A stretch of DNA of 49,352 nt from Candidatus Nomurabacteria bacterium (GCA_016186435.1 JACPLQ010000020.1:1-49352), one strand, 5' to 3'; counted from the first letter of the stretch, positions 4,978-35,612 are shown. Numbers and translations are program-made. The notes: generated by a model from the letters alone, not told the origin.

Positions 4978-6750
4978 TCAGTAAACTTCCTGCTGGTAAC
5001 ACTTTTCACAGTACACTATTTCCGGCCGCTCCGGAGCATAGGTGGTCTCAAATTCCACTTTACATTTTCCTTTGCCATGAAAATGTTCTGTTGTCGCTTG
5101 TGATGAGCCAGTCGAACCGCACATGCAATCTCGGTGATATAATTTCAATTCCGGCATAATTTTGCATCTTTCATAATACCTGCAATTCGGGCAAAGGATC
5201 GGAAGAGGTATTTGATGCTTCTTATAAAAATTCAGTTCATAATTGGTGATTCGAAAGGCTTCCGTACACTGATGAGTGCAAATTCCTTTGTGTTCACATC
5301 CCAATACTTCATTTAAAATATTTTCATCAACTTCATCTAGGTCATCGGGAATTTCATCTGCTGTGATTGTAATTTCAAAATTTCTTTGTTCTGGATTCCT
5401 CCACGCATATCCTCTTTTTTGGACCTCCTCTCGAGTTAAAGGCGCGAGTTCTTGCGCCAGGGTTTCGTTGTATGACCAGGGTGAAAGTTCGATGGGGAAA
5501 AATTCGCCGTAATTGTATTTTATTCCTATCTTGTCTATGAAAGGGATGTCTTTCATCTGTTGAATAATCTTTTGTCGAATATTCTTAAAATCTTCTTTGG
5601 AATATTTTTTATTGAAAATAGCGTATTCTATACTTCGGAGTGAGATACAGCCCAAAATATTTGAGCAATTTCTGCAGGAATCAGTATAATCTGCGTCCCG
5701 CACCGAACTTATGGCGTTGTGGGTAAACTTAACATTGAAATTATCTAATGCCCCAGTGATATACTCATATAAAAGTTCTGAATCTTTTCCATAATCAAAG
5801 TCCATGGAATCTTTATAATTATAGCCTCTATAGCAATAGCGGGCATTTTCCACGTTGTATATCTCGAAACAATTCTTGCAATTTTTGACGTTTAAAAGTC
5901 TGTCTCCGGTGGCATTTACTGACTGGGTAATATTAGTAAAACGATATATCGCCTTTTTCTTGATATCTGAAAATTCTTCTTGCAAAAAATTACGCGAAGC
6001 TCTGCTCTTTAAATTAAATTTTTCCAGCTCTTTAAAATACTCATTTTTCGTATATTGTGTATTTTTAATGCAAAACTTTTTATTACGCAAATTATAGGAA
6101 AGAAAGCAATTACTGCAATTTATGCAGTCCACCAGATAATAAGAATCTAGACAATTTTTAGAAGAAAAAAGATATTGGCAATTATAATTACCCTGGCCTT
6201 CTACATTTTCATATAAAATTTCGGAACCGCTTATGATATTCAGAGAATCAACTATATCTTTCGAACCGTCTACGTTTTTGGAATAAAAAATATTTTCAGA
6301 TTCTTTCGTTACAGAATAAGACAAGTAGACACTACGAGAGTCAGTGGCCATATTTGCATAATCCGAATTGATAGCGTTTCGTTGCCATAATGCCAACCGA
6401 GGAACGACATCCTGTAGCTCTTTATATTGTTCGAAAAAATTACGGGAAAAATCATACTCACGACCATGTGAAAGAGGATCCCATGCATCGCCAAACCAAC
6501 ATTCACGGCAATAAACGGGAAAAGGAACATCAACATTGTACATGGCTATTATGTTTTTATTACAAAGATCACACGTACGGCGGTATAACGTTCTTTCGTT
6601 GCGCCAGGTAAATCTTCGTATCCGTCGACACCATGGGCAAAAGGTCGGCGGCGGGACTTTAATCTTTTCATAAAATCCAAAATCGTCCGGCTCAATGACG
6701 AAGTCCTGTTTGCAATTCTGGCATATTCGGTTTTCTGTCTTGTAGTTCAT
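4978..6750 (-). CDS. large cysteine-rich multi-CxxC protein, paralog A
   Basis: N-terminal zinc ribbons (CQNCKQDF...CPWCR, CDLC...CREC). Internal repeat ending in ...NKKFCIKNTQYTKNEYFKELEKF. C-terminal ribbon ...ERPEIVYCEKC. Start moved to the ATG at 6750 (MNYKTEN); the track start at 6765 is a TTG inside the palindromic box. Confidence 0.75.
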   Translation of the reverse strand: MNYKTENRICQNCKQDFVIEPDDFGFYEKIKVPPPTFCPWCRRIRRFTWRNERTLYRRTCDLCNKNIIAMYNVDVPFPVYCRECWFGDAWDPLSHGREYDFSRNFFEQYKELQDVVPRLALWQRNAINSDYANMATDSRSVYLSYSVTKESENIFYSKNVDGSKDIVDSLNIISGSEILYENVEGQGNYNCQYLFSSKNCLDSYYLVDCINCSNCFLSYNLRNKKFCIKNTQYTKNEYFKELEKFNLKSRASRNFLQEEFSDIKKKAIYRFTNITQSVNATGDRLLNVKNCKNCFEIYNVENARYCYRGYNYKDSMDFDYGKDSELLYEYITGALDNFNVKFTHNAISSVRDADYTDSCRNCSNILGCISLRSIEYAIFNKKYSKEDFKNIRQKIIQQMKDIPFIDKIGIKYNYGEFFPIELSPWSYNETLAQELAPLTREEVQKRGYAWRNPEQRNFEITITADEIPDDLDEVDENILNEVLGCEHKGICTHQCTEAFRITNYELNFYKKHQIPLPILCPNCRYYERCKIMPELKLYHRDCMCGSTGSSQATTEHFHGKGKCKVEFETTYAPERPEIVYCEKCYQQEVY

Positions 6751-26778: not shown

Positions 26779-28278
26779 TCATATCATAGGTTCGCCTTCT
26801 TGGGAAGATTTTGGCTCATTTTTCTGCGCTTCTCTTTCTTTTCCCTCGGGCTTAGCCTCACGGGCGAGCCTTTTTGCTCTTCCTTCTATGATAGCTTTTT
26901 CTTCAGCGCTTCGGATGATAGTGGCCTCTTCTTCAGCAATAAGTTTTGCGGCATCTCCTTTCGGTATGGAGTATTTTCTTCGTGAAGCAGCTATAATTTC
27001 TTCCCTGCAAGAAGAATGCGTTGGCGGAAGAACTCGGAGGGTTTCTGCCGAAAAAGGATCGTAGGATTCGCCGTCTATAGTCATCTTTACATAAATTTCT
27101 CCGACTGCGAGATTGATCATATCTTTCACGTCAAAGAGCGGAGCAAATTCCGGCTTCATTTTTACCGCATCCTCGCCGCCGATACGAAAAGTTATGATGC
27201 TTCCGCAGTTACCGAGCACAGCCTGATGAACTTTCGGCAGAATCTGTCCCACATATTGATGCGCCATGGTAAGATTGAGACCATATTTCCTAGCCTCTGA
27301 TAAAATATTTTCAAAAGTTTGAGTCACGACATTTTGAAACTCATCCACATATAGATAGAAATCTACCCGGTCTTTTTCCGGAATAGATGCGCGCTCCATG
27401 CCGGCTTGTTTTATTTTTGTTAAAAATATAGAACCCAAAAAAGAAGAATTTTCTTCGCCGAGACGGCCTTTGGATAAATTAATTAGGATAATTTTCCCCT
27501 CATTCATTAATTTGCTAATGTCTATTTTGTTCTGCTTCTGTCCGAAAATATTTCGCAGGAGCGGATCCGAGAGAAATTGCCCGAGCTTGTTCACAAGCGG
27601 GATAATAGCGTCAGTATCAAATTTTTCAGACCAGTCGGCGAATTCAATAGCGAAGAATCTTTTCACCATGTCATCCGTAATATATTCCACGACTTTTTGC
27701 CGGTAATTTCTGTCAGTAAGCATAGAAATCATTCCGCGCATGGTCGCATGCGGATAGTCCAAGAGCGCAAGACAGGTAAAACGAAAAACGTGCTCCAACC
27801 TCGGAGTCCAGTTGGCGCCGAATTGTTTCTGAAAAACTTCTATGAGTCCCTGCGTCAGCTGAAATTTAAACATCGGGTCAACATTAGCGAGCGGATTGAA
27901 TGATGCTGGGAAATCCAAATCCGTAGGATCAATAATACATACATCTTCAATACGCTCTTTGGGAATATAATCCAGCATTGCTTCTATCTCATCCCCGTGC
28001 GGATCTATCAAGCATAGTCCATGGCCATACGAAATATCCTGACGCATAAAAAGTTCAAGCATCTTGCTCTTGCCGACACCGGATTTTCCTATAATATATA
28101 AGTGTCTGCGTCTGTCGACACGCTTGATACCGAAAACGAATTTTTTTTCTTCAAGAGATGCGACATAATTAGTGCGCCCAATAAAAGAAACCTCTTCAGG
28201 CTTGACCTTGCCAAAAACCGGCAGCTCTGGCGGCGGCGGCCCGTATTTTATTATCTGGACTCGATTAGGTTTGGGCAT
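26779..28278 (-). CDS. soluble VirD4/TraG/TraD-like P-loop ATPase, paralog 2
   Basis: Walker A IIGKSGVGKS, Walker B FYLYVDEFQN. Colinear similarity to the upstream 677-aa paralog. No TM segments seen. Confidence 0.7.
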   Translation of the reverse strand: MPKPNRVQIIKYGPPPPELPVFGKVKPEEVSFIGRTNYVASLEEKKFVFGIKRVDRRRHLYIIGKSGVGKSKMLELFMRQDISYGHGLCLIDPHGDEIEAMLDYIPKERIEDVCIIDPTDLDFPASFNPLANVDPMFKFQLTQGLIEVFQKQFGANWTPRLEHVFRFTCLALLDYPHATMRGMISMLTDRNYRQKVVEYITDDMVKRFFAIEFADWSEKFDTDAIIPLVNKLGQFLSDPLLRNIFGQKQNKIDISKLMNEGKIILINLSKGRLGEENSSFLGSIFLTKIKQAGMERASIPEKDRVDFYLYVDEFQNVVTQTFENILSEARKYGLNLTMAHQYVGQILPKVHQAVLGNCGSIITFRIGGEDAVKMKPEFAPLFDVKDMINLAVGEIYVKMTIDGESYDPFSAETLRVLPPTHSSCREEIIAASRRKYSIPKGDAAKLIAEEEATIIRSAEEKAIIEGRAKRLAREAKPEGKEREAQKNEPKSSQEGEPMI

Positions 28279-28357: not shown

Positions 28358-30391
28358 TCATTCCAAAATTTTCCTCAAGACGTCTTCAGGCACTTCTGGT
28401 GGAACAGTTTTTTGAGACACAGGAGCAGGAGTTGGGGTCTTTTGCGCTATCAAATTTTTCAATTTATTCATGTCTTCCGGGGTCGCCGCGCGATCTTTTT
28501 GACGAGACACGGTTTCTTGTTTGACGTCCCGCATTTTGTCTTTGAGGGTATCGAGGGAAATCGGGCTGGGCGCAGAAGCAGATGGCTGCGGAGCTGATCT
28601 GGAGGTATCTTGCAGCGCCTTGCTTAAAACTTCTTTCAAAGCTGAATGGTCGCTTGGTTTGTCTTTGTGTACAACAGGAGGTTTTGAATGAAATACTTTT
28701 TTAACCGCATTAAATATGCCCGACTTGCTTGCCGGAGGTTGTTGCTGCTGCTTGTGTTCTGCTCTTTCCGGATATCTTTCTTTTTCTTCGTGAATTTTGC
28801 CTTCTTTTGGCGCAAATTCTATGCCCAAATCCGCTAAGGGTTTGTAAAATTTTGAGTCATCATACTTTATCTGATTTTCAGAGCCTTTTTCCACTTTTAC
28901 TTCTCCGGATTTTATTTTAGCAATGCATTCTTTGCAGTATACAGGTCTCCCCGGTTCTGGTTTAAAAGGCACCGTCTTTTCCAGCCCGCAAAGCGAACAA
29001 ATTATCTGGAATTTTTCCATGCTTCCTTGCCCCCCTACATAACCCGCGGAACTCACTCCACTTGGTTCCATGTCACCCAAAGACATTCCGCTCCAATTAT
29101 TTATTTCTCTTTCTACATCTTCTTTGGATTTGCAATAAAGTTTACGAGAAGATTCGATAACCTCTTGTTCAATTTTTCTGTCCCCGCCTTTGACCATCTG
29201 CGGCAGAGTTTTCGCGGAAAAAGGACGGGAGGTCACGCCGTCTATCATAAGTTTCATGTACACTTTGTAGTTCGGCAAATTTACTATATCCTGCGGGACG
29301 AATTCAGGCTCAAATTCTTTTTCCAAAAAGTCCGCATCGTCTGCGCCAACTCTAAAAACTATTATCGTACCGACGTTGCCAAAGACAGCGTCGCGCACGG
29401 CAGAACTCTTGTCAGAAATGAGCTGAGCGGTATATTGGTGCGCCACAGTTAGATTTAGTCTATATTTTCTAGCTTCAGAAAGTATTCCGGCAAATGCGTC
29501 CGTCACGAAATTTTGGAACTCGTCAACGTATAAATAAAAATCTTTGCGATGTTCTTCCGGAATGCGCACGCGCTCCATGGCCGCGAGCTGGATCTTGGTA
29601 ATGATCATGCCTCCCAAAAGCGCCGAATTGTCTTCTCCGATGCGTCCTTTGGAAACATTCACCAGAAAAATTTTCCCTTCATTCATCATGTCAAAAATAT
29701 TTATCGTGCTCCTTGTCTGACCAACGACATTTCTGATAATAGAAGTAGAAAGAAACTGCCCGACTTTGTTTTGGATCGGGGCAATAGCTTCATTTCTAAA
29801 TTTATCCTGCCACGCTTCGTACTCGTGCACCCAGAAAGCCTTGATGACCGGATCCTTCAGGTTGGAAATTATTTTCTGGCGATAGTCTTTATCTACGAGC
29901 ATCCTAGGGATGCCGAGAAGCGTGGTCCCCGGCGTATCAAGCAGAGCCAGAATAGTATTATTTAAAATATATTCCATTCTGGCGCTCCAAGCATTCGCCC
30001 AGATTTTCGTAAATATGCCCATGAGCCCCGAGGCCACTAGGTGCTTATATTGCGGATCTATGAGCTCTAGGACGTTGAAACCAATATGGTAGTCTGTATC
30101 AGCAGGATTAAAATAAACGACATCCTTTAAACGATGCCTAGGAATAGCTGATAAAATTGCTTCTACGTTTTCTCCGTGCGGATCCACCATGCAAACGCCT
30201 TCGCCATTCTGGATGTTCTGAATAATCATGTTGAACATGAGCACAGATTTACCTGTACCGGATTTTCCGAGAATATAAACATGCTGGCGCCTGTCTTTGC
30301 GCTTAATTCCAAAAAGCTGATTCTTATCCCGATAAGTAGTAATTCCCAGATAAGTAACGTCCTTATTTACGGGTATTTCCGGAAGTTCCAT
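28358..30391 (-). CDS. soluble VirD4/TraG/TraD-like P-loop ATPase, paralog 1, with C-terminal zinc ribbon and Pro/Lys-rich tail
   Basis: Walker A ILGKSGTGKS, Walker B FYLYVDEFQN. C-terminal CSLCG...VPFKPEPGRPVYCKEC ribbon. Confidence 0.7.
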   Translation of the reverse strand: MELPEIPVNKDVTYLGITTYRDKNQLFGIKRKDRRQHVYILGKSGTGKSVLMFNMIIQNIQNGEGVCMVDPHGENVEAILSAIPRHRLKDVVYFNPADTDYHIGFNVLELIDPQYKHLVASGLMGIFTKIWANAWSARMEYILNNTILALLDTPGTTLLGIPRMLVDKDYRQKIISNLKDPVIKAFWVHEYEAWQDKFRNEAIAPIQNKVGQFLSTSIIRNVVGQTRSTINIFDMMNEGKIFLVNVSKGRIGEDNSALLGGMIITKIQLAAMERVRIPEEHRKDFYLYVDEFQNFVTDAFAGILSEARKYRLNLTVAHQYTAQLISDKSSAVRDAVFGNVGTIIVFRVGADDADFLEKEFEPEFVPQDIVNLPNYKVYMKLMIDGVTSRPFSAKTLPQMVKGGDRKIEQEVIESSRKLYCKSKEDVEREINNWSGMSLGDMEPSGVSSAGYVGGQGSMEKFQIICSLCGLEKTVPFKPEPGRPVYCKECIAKIKSGEVKVEKGSENQIKYDDSKFYKPLADLGIEFAPKEGKIHEEKERYPERAEHKQQQQPPASKSGIFNAVKKVFHSKPPVVHKDKPSDHSALKEVLSKALQDTSRSAPQPSASAPSPISLDTLKDKMRDVKQETVSRQKDRAATPEDMNKLKNLIAQKTPTPAPVSQKTVPPEVPEDVLRKILE

Positions 30392-32438: not shown

Positions 32439-32945
32439 ATGTCAAGCTATTCCAAAAAAATTCTCAAGAAACTGGCCGAAAAGCCCGCAGTTTCCGTAGA
32501 AGAACTAAAGGATTCGGACACCAAAACCTCTTACGCCCTAACTCGGGCGTTAAAAAACCTAGTGGGAGGCGGTTATGCTGAAATTCATAAATCCGAAAGA
32601 CAAAATTACGCAAAAATCACGGCTCAGGGAAAAACCAAATTAAACAGCATCACCCTAGAAAACGTTGATGCCCTCGTGCCTCAATCATGGGACGGGTTCT
32701 GGAGAATTATTTTATTGGACCTTCCCGAAAGCAGAAAAAGTGAACGCGAAAGTCTGCGCTATCTTTTGAAAAAAGCGGGTTTCGTCTGCCTCAAAAATTC
32801 CGCCTGGATCTCCCCTTTTCCGTATGAGCACTTGTTTGCGAATATAAAAAAAGATTTAGGCCTTACGACAGAAATGATGATCATTGTTACCGAACACATA
32901 GATGAGGAATCCAAAAAAGTTCTCTTCGAGACCTTCGTACAATAG
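32439..32945 (+). CDS. PaaX-like regulator: N-terminal winged helix plus Cas2-like ferredoxin-fold domain
   Basis: Pattern WDGFWRIILLDLPESRKSERESLRYLLKKAGFVCLKNSAWISPFP resembles the PaaX/Cas2-fold module. Opposite strand to its neighbours. Confidence 0.55.
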   Translation: MSSYSKKILKKLAEKPAVSVEELKDSDTKTSYALTRALKNLVGGGYAEIHKSERQNYAKITAQGKTKLNSITLENVDALVPQSWDGFWRIILLDLPESRKSERESLRYLLKKAGFVCLKNSAWISPFPYEHLFANIKKDLGLTTEMMIIVTEHIDEESKKVLFETFVQ

Positions 32946-32970
32946 GATTGTTCCATATCTTTGTTATGAT

Positions 32971-32994
32971 TATCTTAAACATATGTAAAAGATA
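32971..32994. terminator. hairpin after the PaaX-like gene, related to 24621-24646
   Basis: TATCTT-aaacatatgtaa-AAGATA. Shares ATCTTA(A/G)ACATATGT with the cysS/speB hairpin. Confidence 0.35.
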
Positions 32995-33005
32995 GTAATA
33001 TAAGT

Positions 33006-33138
33006 TTAGTAAACTTCTTTATTGTAACAGCTCTCGCAGTAAACCTTTTCTGGCCTTTCTGGCGCGTAGGGTGTTTCAAATTCGTTCTATCGTGAAATCT
33101 TTTTTACAGTTTTTGCATTGTTTAGTTTCCGGATTCAT
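33006..33138 (-). pseudogene. deletion remnant of a cysteine-rich paralog: N-terminal ribbon half and C-terminal ribbon half in different frames
   Basis: Frame 1 (33138-33076) reads MNPETKQCKNCKKDFTIERI*. The adjacent frame (33086-33006) reads NEFETPYAPERPEKVYCESCYNKEVY*, which matches the C-terminus of paralog A (EFETTYAPERPEIVYCEKCYQQEVY). Its ATG overlaps the Fic TGA (ATGA). Confidence 0.6.
33085..33129. repeat. 45-bp perfect direct repeat, left copy
   Basis: TTCTATCGTGAAATCTTTTTTACAGTTTTTGCATTGTTTAGTTTC. Identical to 35521-35565. Confidence 0.9.
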
Positions 33139-33752
33139 TTTTTAGAATTACTTTTTAATCTCTTTAAAATAAAATCCGTCATGGGTTTATTCTTGCCAAC
33201 CGCACCAGAAATGCAAGCGTTTATGTACTCACGTTTAGACGTTGAATTCCAGTTAATAATTTTATAGCCAAGACTGAAGATAAGCAAATCTATAAATAAA
33301 CGTATGGTCCGTCCGTTTCCGTCTCGAAAAGGATGAACTGCGTTAAATTCATTGTGAATAAGTGCTATTTTAGAGGCTACGGTATTTTTAGTATCTTTGT
33401 TTTTGGGTAGACTATCTTTTAAAACCTTATCAAGATATTTCATAGAAGAACCCATGTGCTTGGCGGAGGCGAACATCATACCGCCTTTTGACATGTCTAC
33501 TTCCCTTATATTTCCCGCCCAATCATATAATGTCCCGAGAAAATATTTATGTAGTATAAATAAGAATTTGACATCAAAATCACCTAGGCCAGGTCTATTT
33601 TTCGAAAGAAAAAAATCATATGCGTCTGAGAGCAGAATGGTCTCGGCATCTTCTATCTGTTTTTGGTCTGAAATACCAAGCTTATTTTTTAAAACTCCAT
33701 TTTTTATGCCAGCTTGTTCACTTGAAACATTATAGCGAGAATGCCCGGCCAT
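33135..33752 (-). CDS. fic: Fic-domain protein (AMPylase-type)
   Basis: Fic motif HPFRDGNGRTIR. 205 aa. I saw no internal (S/T)xxxE(G/N) inhibitory helix in this protein. Confidence 0.88.
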   Translation of the reverse strand: MAGHSRYNVSSEQAGIKNGVLKNKLGISDQKQIEDAETILLSDAYDFFLSKNRPGLGDFDVKFLFILHKYFLGTLYDWAGNIREVDMSKGGMMFASAKHMGSSMKYLDKVLKDSLPKNKDTKNTVASKIALIHNEFNAVHPFRDGNGRTIRLFIDLLIFSLGYKIINWNSTSKREYINACISGAVGKNKPMTDFILKRLKSNSKK

Positions 33753-33882
33753 GCTTTTGTAATTTTTTAATTATAAAGTTATTTTTCCGAGCACGAGCCA
33801 AACTCATTCCTTCTATTTTCGAAGAGGACAAAACGGCATTTTTTATATCTTTTTTATTGATGTATTTGATTGAATTTCCCAT
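33730..33882 (-). CDS. candidate Fic-inhibitory antitoxin (VbhA/YhfG-like), 50 aa
   Basis: Not in the track (<60 aa). Sequence MGNSIKYINKKDIKNAVLSSSKIEGMSLARARKNNFIIKKLQKHGRAFSL contains SSKIEG, which fits the (S/T)xxxE(G/N) motif. Overlaps the Fic start by 23 nt. TGCTATACT box 8 nt upstream of its ATG. Confidence 0.65.
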   Translation of the reverse strand: MGNSIKYINKKDIKNAVLSSSKIEGMSLARARKNNFIIKKLQKHGRAFSL

Positions 33883-33890
33883 ATACGTAC

Positions 33891-33899
33891 AGTATAGCA
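33891..33899 (-). promoter_or_regulatory. extended -10 box TGCTATACT, 8 nt before the antitoxin-candidate ATG (33882)
   Basis: Minus strand: TGCTATACT-gtacgtat-ATG. Confidence 0.5.
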
Positions 33900-33924
33900 T
33901 ATCCCAGAATTTTTTTCACTGCAT

Positions 33925-35574
33925 TTAGGCGATATGTTGCTTGTAACATTCCTCGCAGGCAATCTTTTGATATCCCCACTCTGGAGGATAATATGCCATT
34001 ATATCCTTTTTACAATAAAAACATTTATAGGGAGAACTTTTCAGAACTACCATTTTGCGTGCTGGTTCTAACATTCTCCTATCAAAATGTTCCCGAGGCA
34101 AAGCAAAATTCCTGTTTTTATGAAATTCAAACTCAGATTGAGAAATATTAAATCGATAGCGAGTTATTGGACAGATCAAGGCTTGGCCACATACAGATGA
34201 ATCAGTGTCTTTCATTTCGTCTGTCAATTCTGTAGATAATATTCCGTCTTTGGAAGAGAAATCTTCTTCCGACCAATAGCCACCTTGCTCCACTATTTCT
34301 TCTTTTGTTGTTTTTGGAAAATAAAGTACTCCTGCCGACAGATTATAGTCACAGATACCCACTGAATAAGGTAAGAATTCCCCGTATTCATCTCCCATAT
34401 CAGAAATAATTTTATTTTTCAATTTTTCATACTCTTCTTTAGTGTATTGTCTATTTAAAATGCAATATTTCTTTTTTCTCAAACCAATACATCCAAAACA
34501 GTTTTCAACATCAATGCAATTATCTAAATACTCAGAATATTTTGCCACAGAATGCGCAGAGTGTTTAATTTGATAACCACCATCTACCGTTCCATTGTTA
34601 CCAGAATTTTCCGTATTCCAAGTAAAAGCTTGATCGATAGAATCTTTGGCATTTAAGCCTCTTATACAATTAAGACAATTTTGCGAATTTTCCCAAGAAA
34701 AAACATTTTTACACTTATCACAGTTGGTCATGTAGTTCCCAGAGGAATTTGTAATTTTTATATTGAAGTTTTCTCGATGGATAGCATCATTTTTTAATAT
34801 ATTCTCAAATTCTATTTTATATGAATTTAATTTTTTATAAGAGCCAAAATTAAATTCGGCTAATTCTTTCTCGTATTCATCTTTTGTATATTGCTGGTTC
34901 CTTATACAATAGCGTTTATTGCGAAGGTTCCAAGACATTACACAATCCTGACAATTTCGACAATCAAACAAAAAATATGAGTCTATGCAATCCCGCGAGT
35001 TTTCTGAAAAATTTAAATTAAACGAACTATGGCAAAATAAACAGTTATATGATTTTTGCATATCAAAACAGTACACCAAATCAAAAGAATCTTTACTGGT
35101 TAAAACTCGATAACAATAACTCAGGTTTTCACATTTCCAAATTGCTCTGCTTAAATAAATGTTTTTTGATTCCCATGTATCCTCAGACCAATCACAAGCA
35201 TAATTTTTTCTACCTATTTGATGAGCACGCGGGACTTTTTCTTGTAACTCTTTTAGTTGAGTGAAAAATGGTTTAGTGGGATCATATTCCTGACCAAAAG
35301 ACATCGGTTCCCAATTATCTCCCCACCATTCATGAGAAGTATAAATAGGAAACCGAGCATTTTCTGGCAAAACAGTTATAAAGCTTTCTCCAGAAAGATC
35401 CGACTTCCCTTTTCTGAACTTTCCAAAAGGAGCAAATGAAAAATATTGCTACCATCTGCAGTCGCAACACTTGCGAGGAATTTTTAAGCCTATTTTTTCA
35501 TAGAAATTAAAATCTTCACTTTCTATCGTGAAATCTTTTTTACAGTTTTTGCATTGTTTAGTTTCTTCTTTCAT
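33925..35574 (-). pseudogene. cysteine-rich multi-CxxC protein, paralog B, interrupted by an in-frame TAG at 35449-35451
   Basis: ATG at 35574 gives MKEETKQCKNCKKDFTIESEDFNFYEKIGLKIPRKCCDCRW-TAG-QYFSF.... This runs in frame into track ORF 33925-35370. It is colinear with paralog A. Confidence 0.6.
35521..35565. repeat. 45-bp perfect direct repeat, right copy
   Basis: Identical to 33085-33129. Encodes ETKQCKNCKKDFTIE on the minus strand. Confidence 0.9.
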
Positions 35575-35612
35575 AATTACTCATAACACTTTATCGCGAT
35601 CGAGAAATTTTG

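Follow-up and report, generated by a model that had tools for sequence, protein, structure and literature searches.

A short gene overlapping fic in a Candidatus Nomurabacteria genome and its probable role as the antitoxin of a class I Fic pair

A small open reading frame precedes and overlaps fic

The window, that is, the whole stretch of DNA analyzed here, covers 49,352 nucleotides of a Candidatus Nomurabacteria bacterium (GCA_016186435.1, JACPLQ010000020.1:1-49352), which belongs to Patescibacteria or the Candidate Phyla Radiation (CPR). Its minus strand carries fic (33135..33752), which encodes a 205-aa Fic domain protein, a predicted AMP-transferase probably of the class I FicT type, and immediately upstream of it a small ficA-like gene (33730..33882), whose product is the predicted antitoxin and inhibitory partner of Fic. 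An earlier note, made from the sequence alone, had proposed that this small open reading frame (ORF) forms a class I Fic toxin-antitoxin-like pair with fic. Direct reading bore out the coordinates and translation given there: the ORF runs from an ATG at 33882 to a TAA at 33732..33730 and encodes 50 aa (MGNSIKYINKKDIKNAVLSSSKIEGMSLARARKNNFIIKKLQKHGRAFSL), a basic, Lys/Arg-rich protein. The gap of 172 nt between the stop of the upstream gene (33925) and the fic start, the overlap of 23 nt between the small ORF and fic (33730..33752), and the box lying 8 nt before the ATG (TGCTATACT, 33899..33891) were also found as the note had described them.

The key feature of the small protein is the hexapeptide SSKIEG (S20 to G25, codons 33808..33825, minus strand), which was matched by regular expression to the inhibitory-helix motif (S/T)xxxE(G/N), as the note had pointed out. 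From six-frame frequencies in the window, a motif of the form [ST]xxxE[GN] is expected about 0.023 times per 50-aa ORF. By analogy with known systems, E24 is predicted to be the inhibitory and deAMPylation glutamate. Mechanical ORF calling yields a protein of 56 aa from an in-frame ATG further upstream, at 33900. This start was rejected and that at 33882 preferred because the ATG at 33900 falls inside the conserved extended -10 box and the resulting protein would exceed the length of its homologs (48-53 aa).

The small gene is conserved and under purifying selection

Genomic loci were fetched for relatives of the Fic protein at 50-70% identity, which gave 21 loci representing 10 distinct pairs (individual loci are designated below by L numbers). 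Close loci were obtained by exact-protein look-ups, and a metagenome scan added one; a single-protein scan of genome contigs revealed no relatives, and an alignment-based scan of such contigs recovered distant Fic genes only (30-47% identity). In every one of the 21 close loci, a motif-bearing ORF of 48-53 aa lies directly upstream of fic and ends inside it, with the motif reading S(S/L)(K/Q)(I/M/L/V)EG. The earlier note had held that its proposal would fall if the motif were not conserved in orthologous upstream ORFs, which is not what these loci display. An upstream motif ORF is also present in two more distant loci, L104 and L001, the latter from a metagenome-assembled genome labelled gammaproteobacterial whose Fic protein is 47% identical to that of the window; taking all loci together, the encoded proteins have 48-55 aa, apart from one of 103 aa. 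As a control, the opposite strand of the same upstream regions was searched, and a motif ORF was found in one case out of 10. A crude upstream search among 80 distant class I loci detected motif ORFs in 22; Fic starts were only estimated there, and the remaining loci were not read as lacking such an ORF.

The pattern of substitution points in the same direction. For the closer relatives, the ratio of nonsynonymous to synonymous substitution rates (dN/dS) ranges from 0.10 to 0.21 in the part of the small ORF outside the fic overlap; such values are confined to the ORF frame. Over all pairs, the mean proportions of nonsynonymous (pN) and synonymous (pS) differences are 0.34 and 0.71, respectively, and pN equals or exceeds pS in both shifted frames. 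Among 5.8 billion proteins, three independently called homologs were found, each with SSKIEG and each ending in HGRAFS(L/I), and 36 clusters of the small-protein family emerged when 1.84 billion representative proteins were searched exhaustively with a profile; at 50% identity, the family comprises at least 36 clusters, mostly from Patescibacteria. In an alignment of 30 members, S20, E24, G25, and A31 are the only invariant columns, and the first three are likewise invariant in a 13-member set. The only source name seen for the small protein was "hypothetical protein". The expectation in the note that the gene escapes length-filtered ORF calling holds in part: it was missed in L090-L093, L095, L097, and L101 but had been called in about two thirds of the related contigs. 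Together, these observations show that the small ORF is a real, conserved gene under purifying selection, and that it always lies immediately upstream of, and overlaps, the Fic gene of this lineage.

The Fic protein has a complete active site and lacks an inhibitory helix

The Fic protein matches the Pfam Fic family (E 5.6e-16) and contains the complete catalytic motif HPFRDGNGRTIR at residues 140-151 (codons 33300..33335, minus strand; regular expression match), which fits HxFx(D/E)GNGRxxR; R151 corresponds to the second arginine (R2) of the motif and is the predicted salt-bridge partner of E24 in the small protein. Its sequence contains no [ST]xxxE[GN] match, in agreement with the note, which had described a full active site and no internal copy of the inhibitory motif. 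The best NCBIfam model is VbhT (NF045983; E 3.8e-32, 111.9 bits, model positions 13-195 of 419). The score lies far under the equivalog cut-off of 800 bits, a value that implies a full-length architecture of FIC plus BID, because the match is limited to the Fic-domain part of the 419-residue model; the protein consists of the Fic domain alone. The best relatives of solved structure are VbhT (PDB 3zcb, E 9e-22) and Pseudomonas Fic-1 (E 4.9e-19). An AlphaFold2 model built with 25 relatives had a predicted local distance difference test score (pLDDT) of 84.6 and a predicted template modelling (pTM) score of 0.84, and a Foldseek search with it retrieved VbhT (TM score 0.81-0.85) as well as the Fic domains of Bartonella Bep proteins, EcFicT, and Fic-1. 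Most of these structural matches, including VbhT, EcFicT, and Fic-1, were crystallised together with a small antitoxin. All 205 residues belong to the Fic fold, and no BID-like or other extra domain is present.

Among 120 relatives of the Fic protein, the catalytic motif is complete in all, and an internal [ST]xxxE[GN] match was seen in just 9, at scattered, non-homologous positions. Therefore, this Fic lineage appears, as judged from its sequences, to possess an active site competent for AMPylation and no inhibitory helix of its own. Going by their source names, the relatives, and with them the lineage, fall within Patescibacteria (Pacebacteria, Nomurabacteria, Yonathbacteria, Komeilibacteria, and Peregrinibacteria). 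Plasmids commonly carry more distant relatives (2117 records, each below 60% identity), and some phages have them too.

Overlap with fic and expression of the two genes

The 23 nt shared by the two genes (33730..33752, minus strand) encode the end of the small protein (HGRAFSL followed by the stop codon) in one frame and the beginning of Fic (MAGHSRYN) in another, and this dual-coding overlap is the predicted site of translational coupling. The overlap is 23 nt long in eight of the 10 distinct relatives and in L104, 35 nt in the other two, and 8 nt in the most distant locus, and its sequence (ATGGCAGGGCATTCTCG.TATAA) is nearly invariant among relatives at the nucleotide level. The same nearly invariant nucleotides specify both GRAFS(L/V/I) at the end of the small protein and M-A-G/E-H-S-R-Y at the start of Fic. 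The N-terminus of Fic could match the "N-terminal lock" tyrosine considered for EcFicT and VbhT (PMC5033356). There is no Shine-Dalgarno sequence before the fic ATG. Because this ATG is placed inside the small gene, lacks a Shine-Dalgarno sequence, and lies in a nearly invariant overlap, we infer that synthesis of Fic is probably coupled to translation of its inhibitor.

Upstream of the small gene, a promoter-like element (33891..33919, minus strand) consists of GTGAAA (33919..33914), a 17-nt spacer, and the extended -10 box. A consensus scan for this arrangement (GTGAAA-17-TATACT with an upstream TG) did not exceed chance, with 4 sites in the region against 4.3 expected; because the scan alone is not significant, support for the box comes from its conservation across loci. 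In the window, L081, L088, L090, and L094, the sequence TGnTATA(A/C)T precedes the ATG by 6-8 nt, and L102 has a variant form of it; in other relatives a similar box lies 10-26 nt upstream, and the rest of the upstream DNA is unrelated in sequence. Between 23 and 45 kb of the window, almost no gene has a Shine-Dalgarno sequence, and TGnTATAAT ends 6-8 nt before several ATGs, including those of two VirD4-like genes, a 399-aa ORF, and a PaaX-like gene (starts at 30391, 28278, 43222, and 32439, besides others). This layout suggests that leaderless mRNAs are widespread in the organism. The transcript of the small gene is accordingly predicted to be leaderless, with its 5' end at the ATG at 33882 or right beside it, and this may be the normal design for the organism since bona fide genes of the window share the box layout and almost none has a Shine-Dalgarno sequence.

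A probable class I Fic pair and its proposed mechanism

In class I Fic systems, the inhibitory helix is supplied by a small protein encoded immediately upstream, whose glutamate is salt-bridged to the Fic motif's R2 (PMC5033356); absence of this helix from the Fic polypeptide itself separates class I from classes II and III (classification of Engel et al., cited in PMC5033356 and PMC13327609). Every sequence-level feature that defines class I is present at this locus, whether sequence, comparison, or fold is considered: a Fic fold with its catalytic motif, supported by the Pfam match and the VbhT-like AlphaFold2 model, a Fic polypeptide devoid of an inhibitory (S/T)xxxE(G/N) helix, and a separate small protein that bears this motif and whose gene lies upstream of fic and overlaps it. 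The small ORF and fic thus very probably constitute a two-gene operon of the class I Fic toxin-antitoxin type (FicA/FicT type) in a Patescibacteria genome, in support of what the earlier note had put forward. No account of Fic toxin-antitoxin pairs from CPR bacteria turned up in searches of the literature.

The possible mode of action can be outlined from solved relatives. Within the complex that Fic-1 forms with AntF, R146 of Fic-1 binds S24 and E28 of AntF (PMC13327609), and E28 is required both for inhibition and for the deAMPylase activity of the complex on GyrB (PMC13327609). R146 of Fic-1 aligns to R151 of the window's Fic, H135 to H140, and the I-x-W strand with I160 and W162 to I165 and W168, and the predicted contact residues of the pair (S20 and E24 in the small protein, R151 in Fic) are all present. 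By analogy with the VbhTA, EcFicTA, and Fic-1/AntF complexes, the small protein would wrap around the Fic core, and S20 and E24 would bind R151 of HPFRDGNGRTIR, which would prevent productive binding of ATP and block AMP transfer. As with Fic-1/AntF, the same glutamate may make the complex a deAMPylase that reverses the modification. FicT toxins are known to AMPylate gyrase and topoisomerase IV (PMC5675462); if the small protein were depleted here, free Fic might similarly AMPylate its target, probably GyrB and/or ParE, and growth would stop. Transcription would proceed from the extended -10 promoter, whose end lies 8 nt ahead of the ATG, and would produce a leaderless mRNA, on which synthesis of Fic may be tied to translation of the inhibitor, the fic ATG being located within the last 23 nt of the small gene without a Shine-Dalgarno sequence.

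Relationship between the small protein and known antitoxin families

Several results weigh against this assignment. The small protein has no match in Pfam (YhfG included), NCBIfam, or PADLOC: the search with VbhA/YhfG-family hidden Markov model (HMM) profiles that the note had suggested as a check gave no significant hit at curated thresholds, PF10832 (YhfG, DUF2559) was not matched at its gathering score, and neither phmmer nor profile searches detected homology to the VbhA family (3SHG_B-like). When the PDB was searched with the sequence by itself or with profiles A2 and A7, VbhA, YhfG, and AntF were all absent from the results, which contained only chance matches such as histone H2B and PSIP1. 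Such likeness to known antitoxins as exists is confined to about 29-39 aligned columns around the motif. When modelled alone with AlphaFold2, the small protein forms two helices (residues 10-20 and 28-43) at a pLDDT of 67.6, with the motif just after the first helix, and Foldseek found no structural matches for this model; considering its low confidence, we judged the model to be uninformative rather than evidence against the class I assignment. S40 of Fic-1, one of the contacts with AntF, is not conserved in the window's Fic, where L41 is found. Finally, EcFicT, the founding member of class I, has no demonstrated toxic or AMPylating activity (PMC5033356), and PDC-S04, the candidate single-gene defence system whose PADLOC model the Fic protein matches, provided no defence in the single native-host test found (10.1101/2024.12.20.629700).

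A link to the known families emerged only from profile-profile comparison. Control profiles were built from small ORFs that precede distant Fic genes of class I, one of them YhfG-like, which retrieves AntF (8wt0_B, E 3.6e-12) and YhfG (5jff_B), the other VbhA-like, which retrieves VbhA (3zc7_B, E 4e-6) and BiaA. When the CPR family was compared with these sets by hhalign, the YhfG-like set was matched with probabilities of 85.6% and 81.4% (E 6e-6 and 1e-5) and the VbhA-like set with probabilities of 45-47%, and in every one of these alignments SxxxEG was in register. In addition, two of 30 family members touch Pfam YhfG weakly (best E 0.0024), which is the only family matched by more than one member. 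The match to the YhfG-like set appears consistent with remote homology and not with membership. One family member, P0151 (103 aa), carries a domain resembling RelB antitoxins (ribbon-helix-helix, RHH; Pfam E 6.6e-4, just under the cut-off) ahead of the motif module, and its gene precedes a Fic gene whose product is 51% identical to that of the window, with the same 23-nt overlap. The RelB-like fusion offers independent support for an antitoxin role. We therefore read the small protein as a member of a divergent FicA-type family that would work like YhfG and VbhA.

Comparison with individual systems illustrates both likeness and difference. VbhA/VbhT of Bartonella schoenbuchensis (PDB 3SHG, 3ZC7, and 3ZCB), in which VbhT is the best match of the window's Fic in both sequence and structure, shares with our pair the complete catalytic motif and a separate upstream protein of about 50-60 aa containing SxxxEG, and the inhibitory glutamate occupies residue 24 in VbhA (title of 3zcb) just as in the window's small protein. 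However, a C-terminal BID domain is missing from the window's Fic (which has 205 aa, compared with 419 for the NCBIfam model), and the small protein, with its two predicted helices and conserved GRAFS C-terminal tail, has no HMM-detectable homology to VbhA. EcFicA (YhfG)/EcFicT from Escherichia coli and AntF/Fic-1 from Pseudomonas bijieensis (PDB 5JFF, 5JFZ, and 8WT0; Pfam YhfG/DUF2559) have the same gene order and motif and proteins of similar size, and in profile-profile comparison the small-protein family matches the YhfG-like set best; on the other hand, the glutamate is at residue 24 in the window and not 28, the Fic motif is complete whereas that of EcFicT is degenerate, and the window pair is predicted to be leaderless and has the 23-nt overlap. 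With type II toxin-antitoxin systems of the RelB/RHH kind, the pair has in common a bicistronic arrangement of overlapping genes with the antitoxin first, and a RelB-like domain is found in P0151. Unlike RelB/RHH antitoxins, the window's small protein has no DNA-binding domain, so any autoregulation must work differently.

Genomic context of the pair

The order of genes on the minus strand is rpsD, rpoA, rplQ, rplM, rpsI, grpE, a Cys-rich gene, the small gene and fic, a gene remnant, a PaaX-like gene (on the plus strand), dnaK, two genes for VirD4/TrwB-like ATPases, and dnaJ. From 32600 to 35600, the G+C content is 30-37%, compared with 41-48% in the flanks. A perfect direct repeat of 45 nt (33085-33129 and 35521-35565, 2436 nt apart; 73 nt at 82% identity) brackets the Cys-rich gene and the small-ORF/fic pair. 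The downstream repeat copy lies within a gutted paralog (about 32990-33137, minus strand), of which the N-terminal 18 aa (MNPETKQCKNCKKDFTIE) and an out-of-frame C-terminal part of about 25 aa (ending in YCESCYNKEVY) remain. From these features, it seems that recombination carried the Cys-rich gene and the pair, as one block, into a resident paralog. The pair is probably accessory DNA because it lies in a low-G+C, repeat-bracketed block between grpE and dnaK. The genomic contexts of the 10 distinct relatives differ widely.

The Cys-rich gene upstream of the pair (33925-35574, minus strand) consists of one frame of 549 codons with 31 Cys and 9 CxxC pairs, and its product has no match in Pfam, NCBIfam, or PADLOC. 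The frame is broken by an in-frame TAG at 35449-35451 (CCDCRW before the stop and QYFSF after it), a position occupied by Gln in homologs (CRAQRRFAF). A CAG-to-TAG nonsense mutation that turned the gene into a pseudogene, a sequencing error, or readthrough could account for it. Homologs of the Cys-rich protein (530-590 aa, 28-41% identical to each other) adjoin the pair in five of the 10 distinct relatives (L087, L088, L090/91, L094/95, and L102), which otherwise differ in context. A second full-length copy is located at about 4981-6741 (minus strand) in the window. The idea that the Cys-rich neighbor is a third component of the module is weakened by these facts, considering that it belongs to a multi-copy family and does not adjoin the pair in half of the distinct relatives.

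Two tandem genes for VirD4/TrwB/TraD-like coupling ATPases (26779-28278 and 28358-30391, both on the minus strand) are found between dnaK and dnaJ. The 677-aa protein encoded by one of them contains a treble-clef zinc finger of the form CxxC-x17-CxxC (zf_Tbcl_2/TIGR04272) and matches PADLOC mad8 (E 3.4e-15), and VirD4-like genes also flank the pair in L090 and L094. Convergent with fic, and situated between the remnant and dnaK, a plus-strand gene (32439-32945) encodes a 168-aa protein with a winged-helix N-terminus and the PaaX central Cas2-like domain (PF20803, E 2.6e-20). A second, larger Fic-family gene occurs within 1-2 kb of the pair in some relatives, encoding 447 aa in L084/L085 (3757-5100) and 360 aa with a Fic_N domain in L096 (1-1037).

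Alternative explanations

It might be argued that the pair is a stable, regulated enzyme complex, for example an AMPylase/deAMPylase switch that works constitutively on a housekeeping target and has no part in growth arrest or addiction, the small protein being a regulatory subunit and not an antitoxin. EcFicT/EcFicA, which is vertically inherited and has not been shown to be toxic (PMC5033356), provides a precedent, and the position of the pair among chaperone and ribosomal genes, together with the partial synteny in L090 (Cys-rich gene, pair, VirD4-like gene, and dnaJ), would agree with it. Nevertheless, we consider this explanation unlikely, given that the contexts of the 10 distinct relatives otherwise differ, that the block is low in G+C and bracketed by repeats, that the catalytic motif is complete (unlike that of EcFicT), that distant relatives are abundant on plasmids, and that one family member contains a RelB-type antitoxin domain. 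That domain also bears on the idea that the small protein binds Fic or an operator by some means other than an active-site glutamate, as an autoregulator, a chaperone, or a targeting adaptor, with SxxxEG being incidental. Here the failure to detect known FicA families at curated thresholds, the position of the motif in a loop after helix 1 in the isolated AlphaFold2 model, and a basic composition that could suit nucleic-acid binding are favorable; yet only four columns are invariant across 30 diverged members and S20, E24, and G25 are three of them, the motif aligns in register with both known types of antitoxin, the Fic lineage has no other inhibitory helix despite its complete active site, and a DNA-binding function, where present (P0151), comes from the added RelB-like domain. 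This idea is highly improbable in our opinion.

Two other explanations concern the purpose of the pair and the reality of the small gene. If the pair were an effector-immunity or anti-phage (abortive infection) module and not a classical addiction or persistence system, the molecular mechanism would not change, but the toxin would be triggered by phage infection or delivered to another cell. The Fic protein matches the PADLOC candidate PDC-S04 (PDLC04839) over its full length (E 1e-52), VirD4/TrwB-like ATPases are encoded nearby in the window, L090, and L094, and FicT toxins have repeatedly become substrates of type IV secretion (PMC5675462). However, PDC-S04 is a candidate only, with the negative test mentioned above, no BID-like or other additional domain follows the Fic fold, and the VirD4-like and Cys-rich neighbors are multi-copy and absent within 2.5 kb of the pair in half of the distinct relatives, which leaves this explanation with a very slim chance of being right. 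As for the small gene itself, it is short and uncalled in several assemblies, and one database entry (P0156) is a frameshift-type fusion of both genes, as would be expected if the ORF had arisen by chance or were the N-terminus of a class II Fic protein detached by a frameshift or an assembly error. Such an origin is refuted by the recurrence of the out-of-frame overlap of 23 or 35 nt in independent assemblies from many samples, by the low dN/dS in the ORF frame only, and by the conserved promoter box directly upstream, and its probability is practically negligible. A class I toxin-antitoxin-type operon hence remains the preferred interpretation of the small ORF and fic.

Implications for Fic systems in CPR bacteria

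More far-reaching proposals can also be made. In one of them, the pair serves episymbiotic CPR bacteria as an effector-immunity system, along with zinc-ribbon Cys-rich proteins and VirD4-like ATPases: Fic would be exported to the host and AMPylate its gyrase or topoisomerase IV, and the small protein would protect the producer, so that the pair would not be a selfish addiction module. We regard this as very unlikely. It is more likely than this that the small proteins represent a third family of FicA antitoxins, centred on CPR, with leaderless mRNAs and an almost invariant dual-coding overlap of 23 nt.

With respect to its design, the pair is an ordinary example of a well-known type of toxin-antitoxin arrangement and involves no new mechanism. 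The small-protein family is outside the existing Pfam, NCBIfam, and PADLOC models, and the class I assignment would give a function to a family of "hypothetical" small proteins whose genes go uncalled in roughly a third of the related assemblies. It would also extend the FicA/FicT design to the reduced genomes of CPR bacteria and offer a clean example of a toxin-antitoxin operon that combines leaderless transcription (predicted) with overlap-coupled translation (inferred). The apparently "orphan" Fic genes of this lineage would then be class I pairs, which would change their annotation as well as the design of toxicity and defence screens, because Fic must be cloned either with or without the 50-codon gene. 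Though not surprising, the finding should be useful for annotation and for studies of Fic proteins or toxin-antitoxin systems in CPR bacteria.

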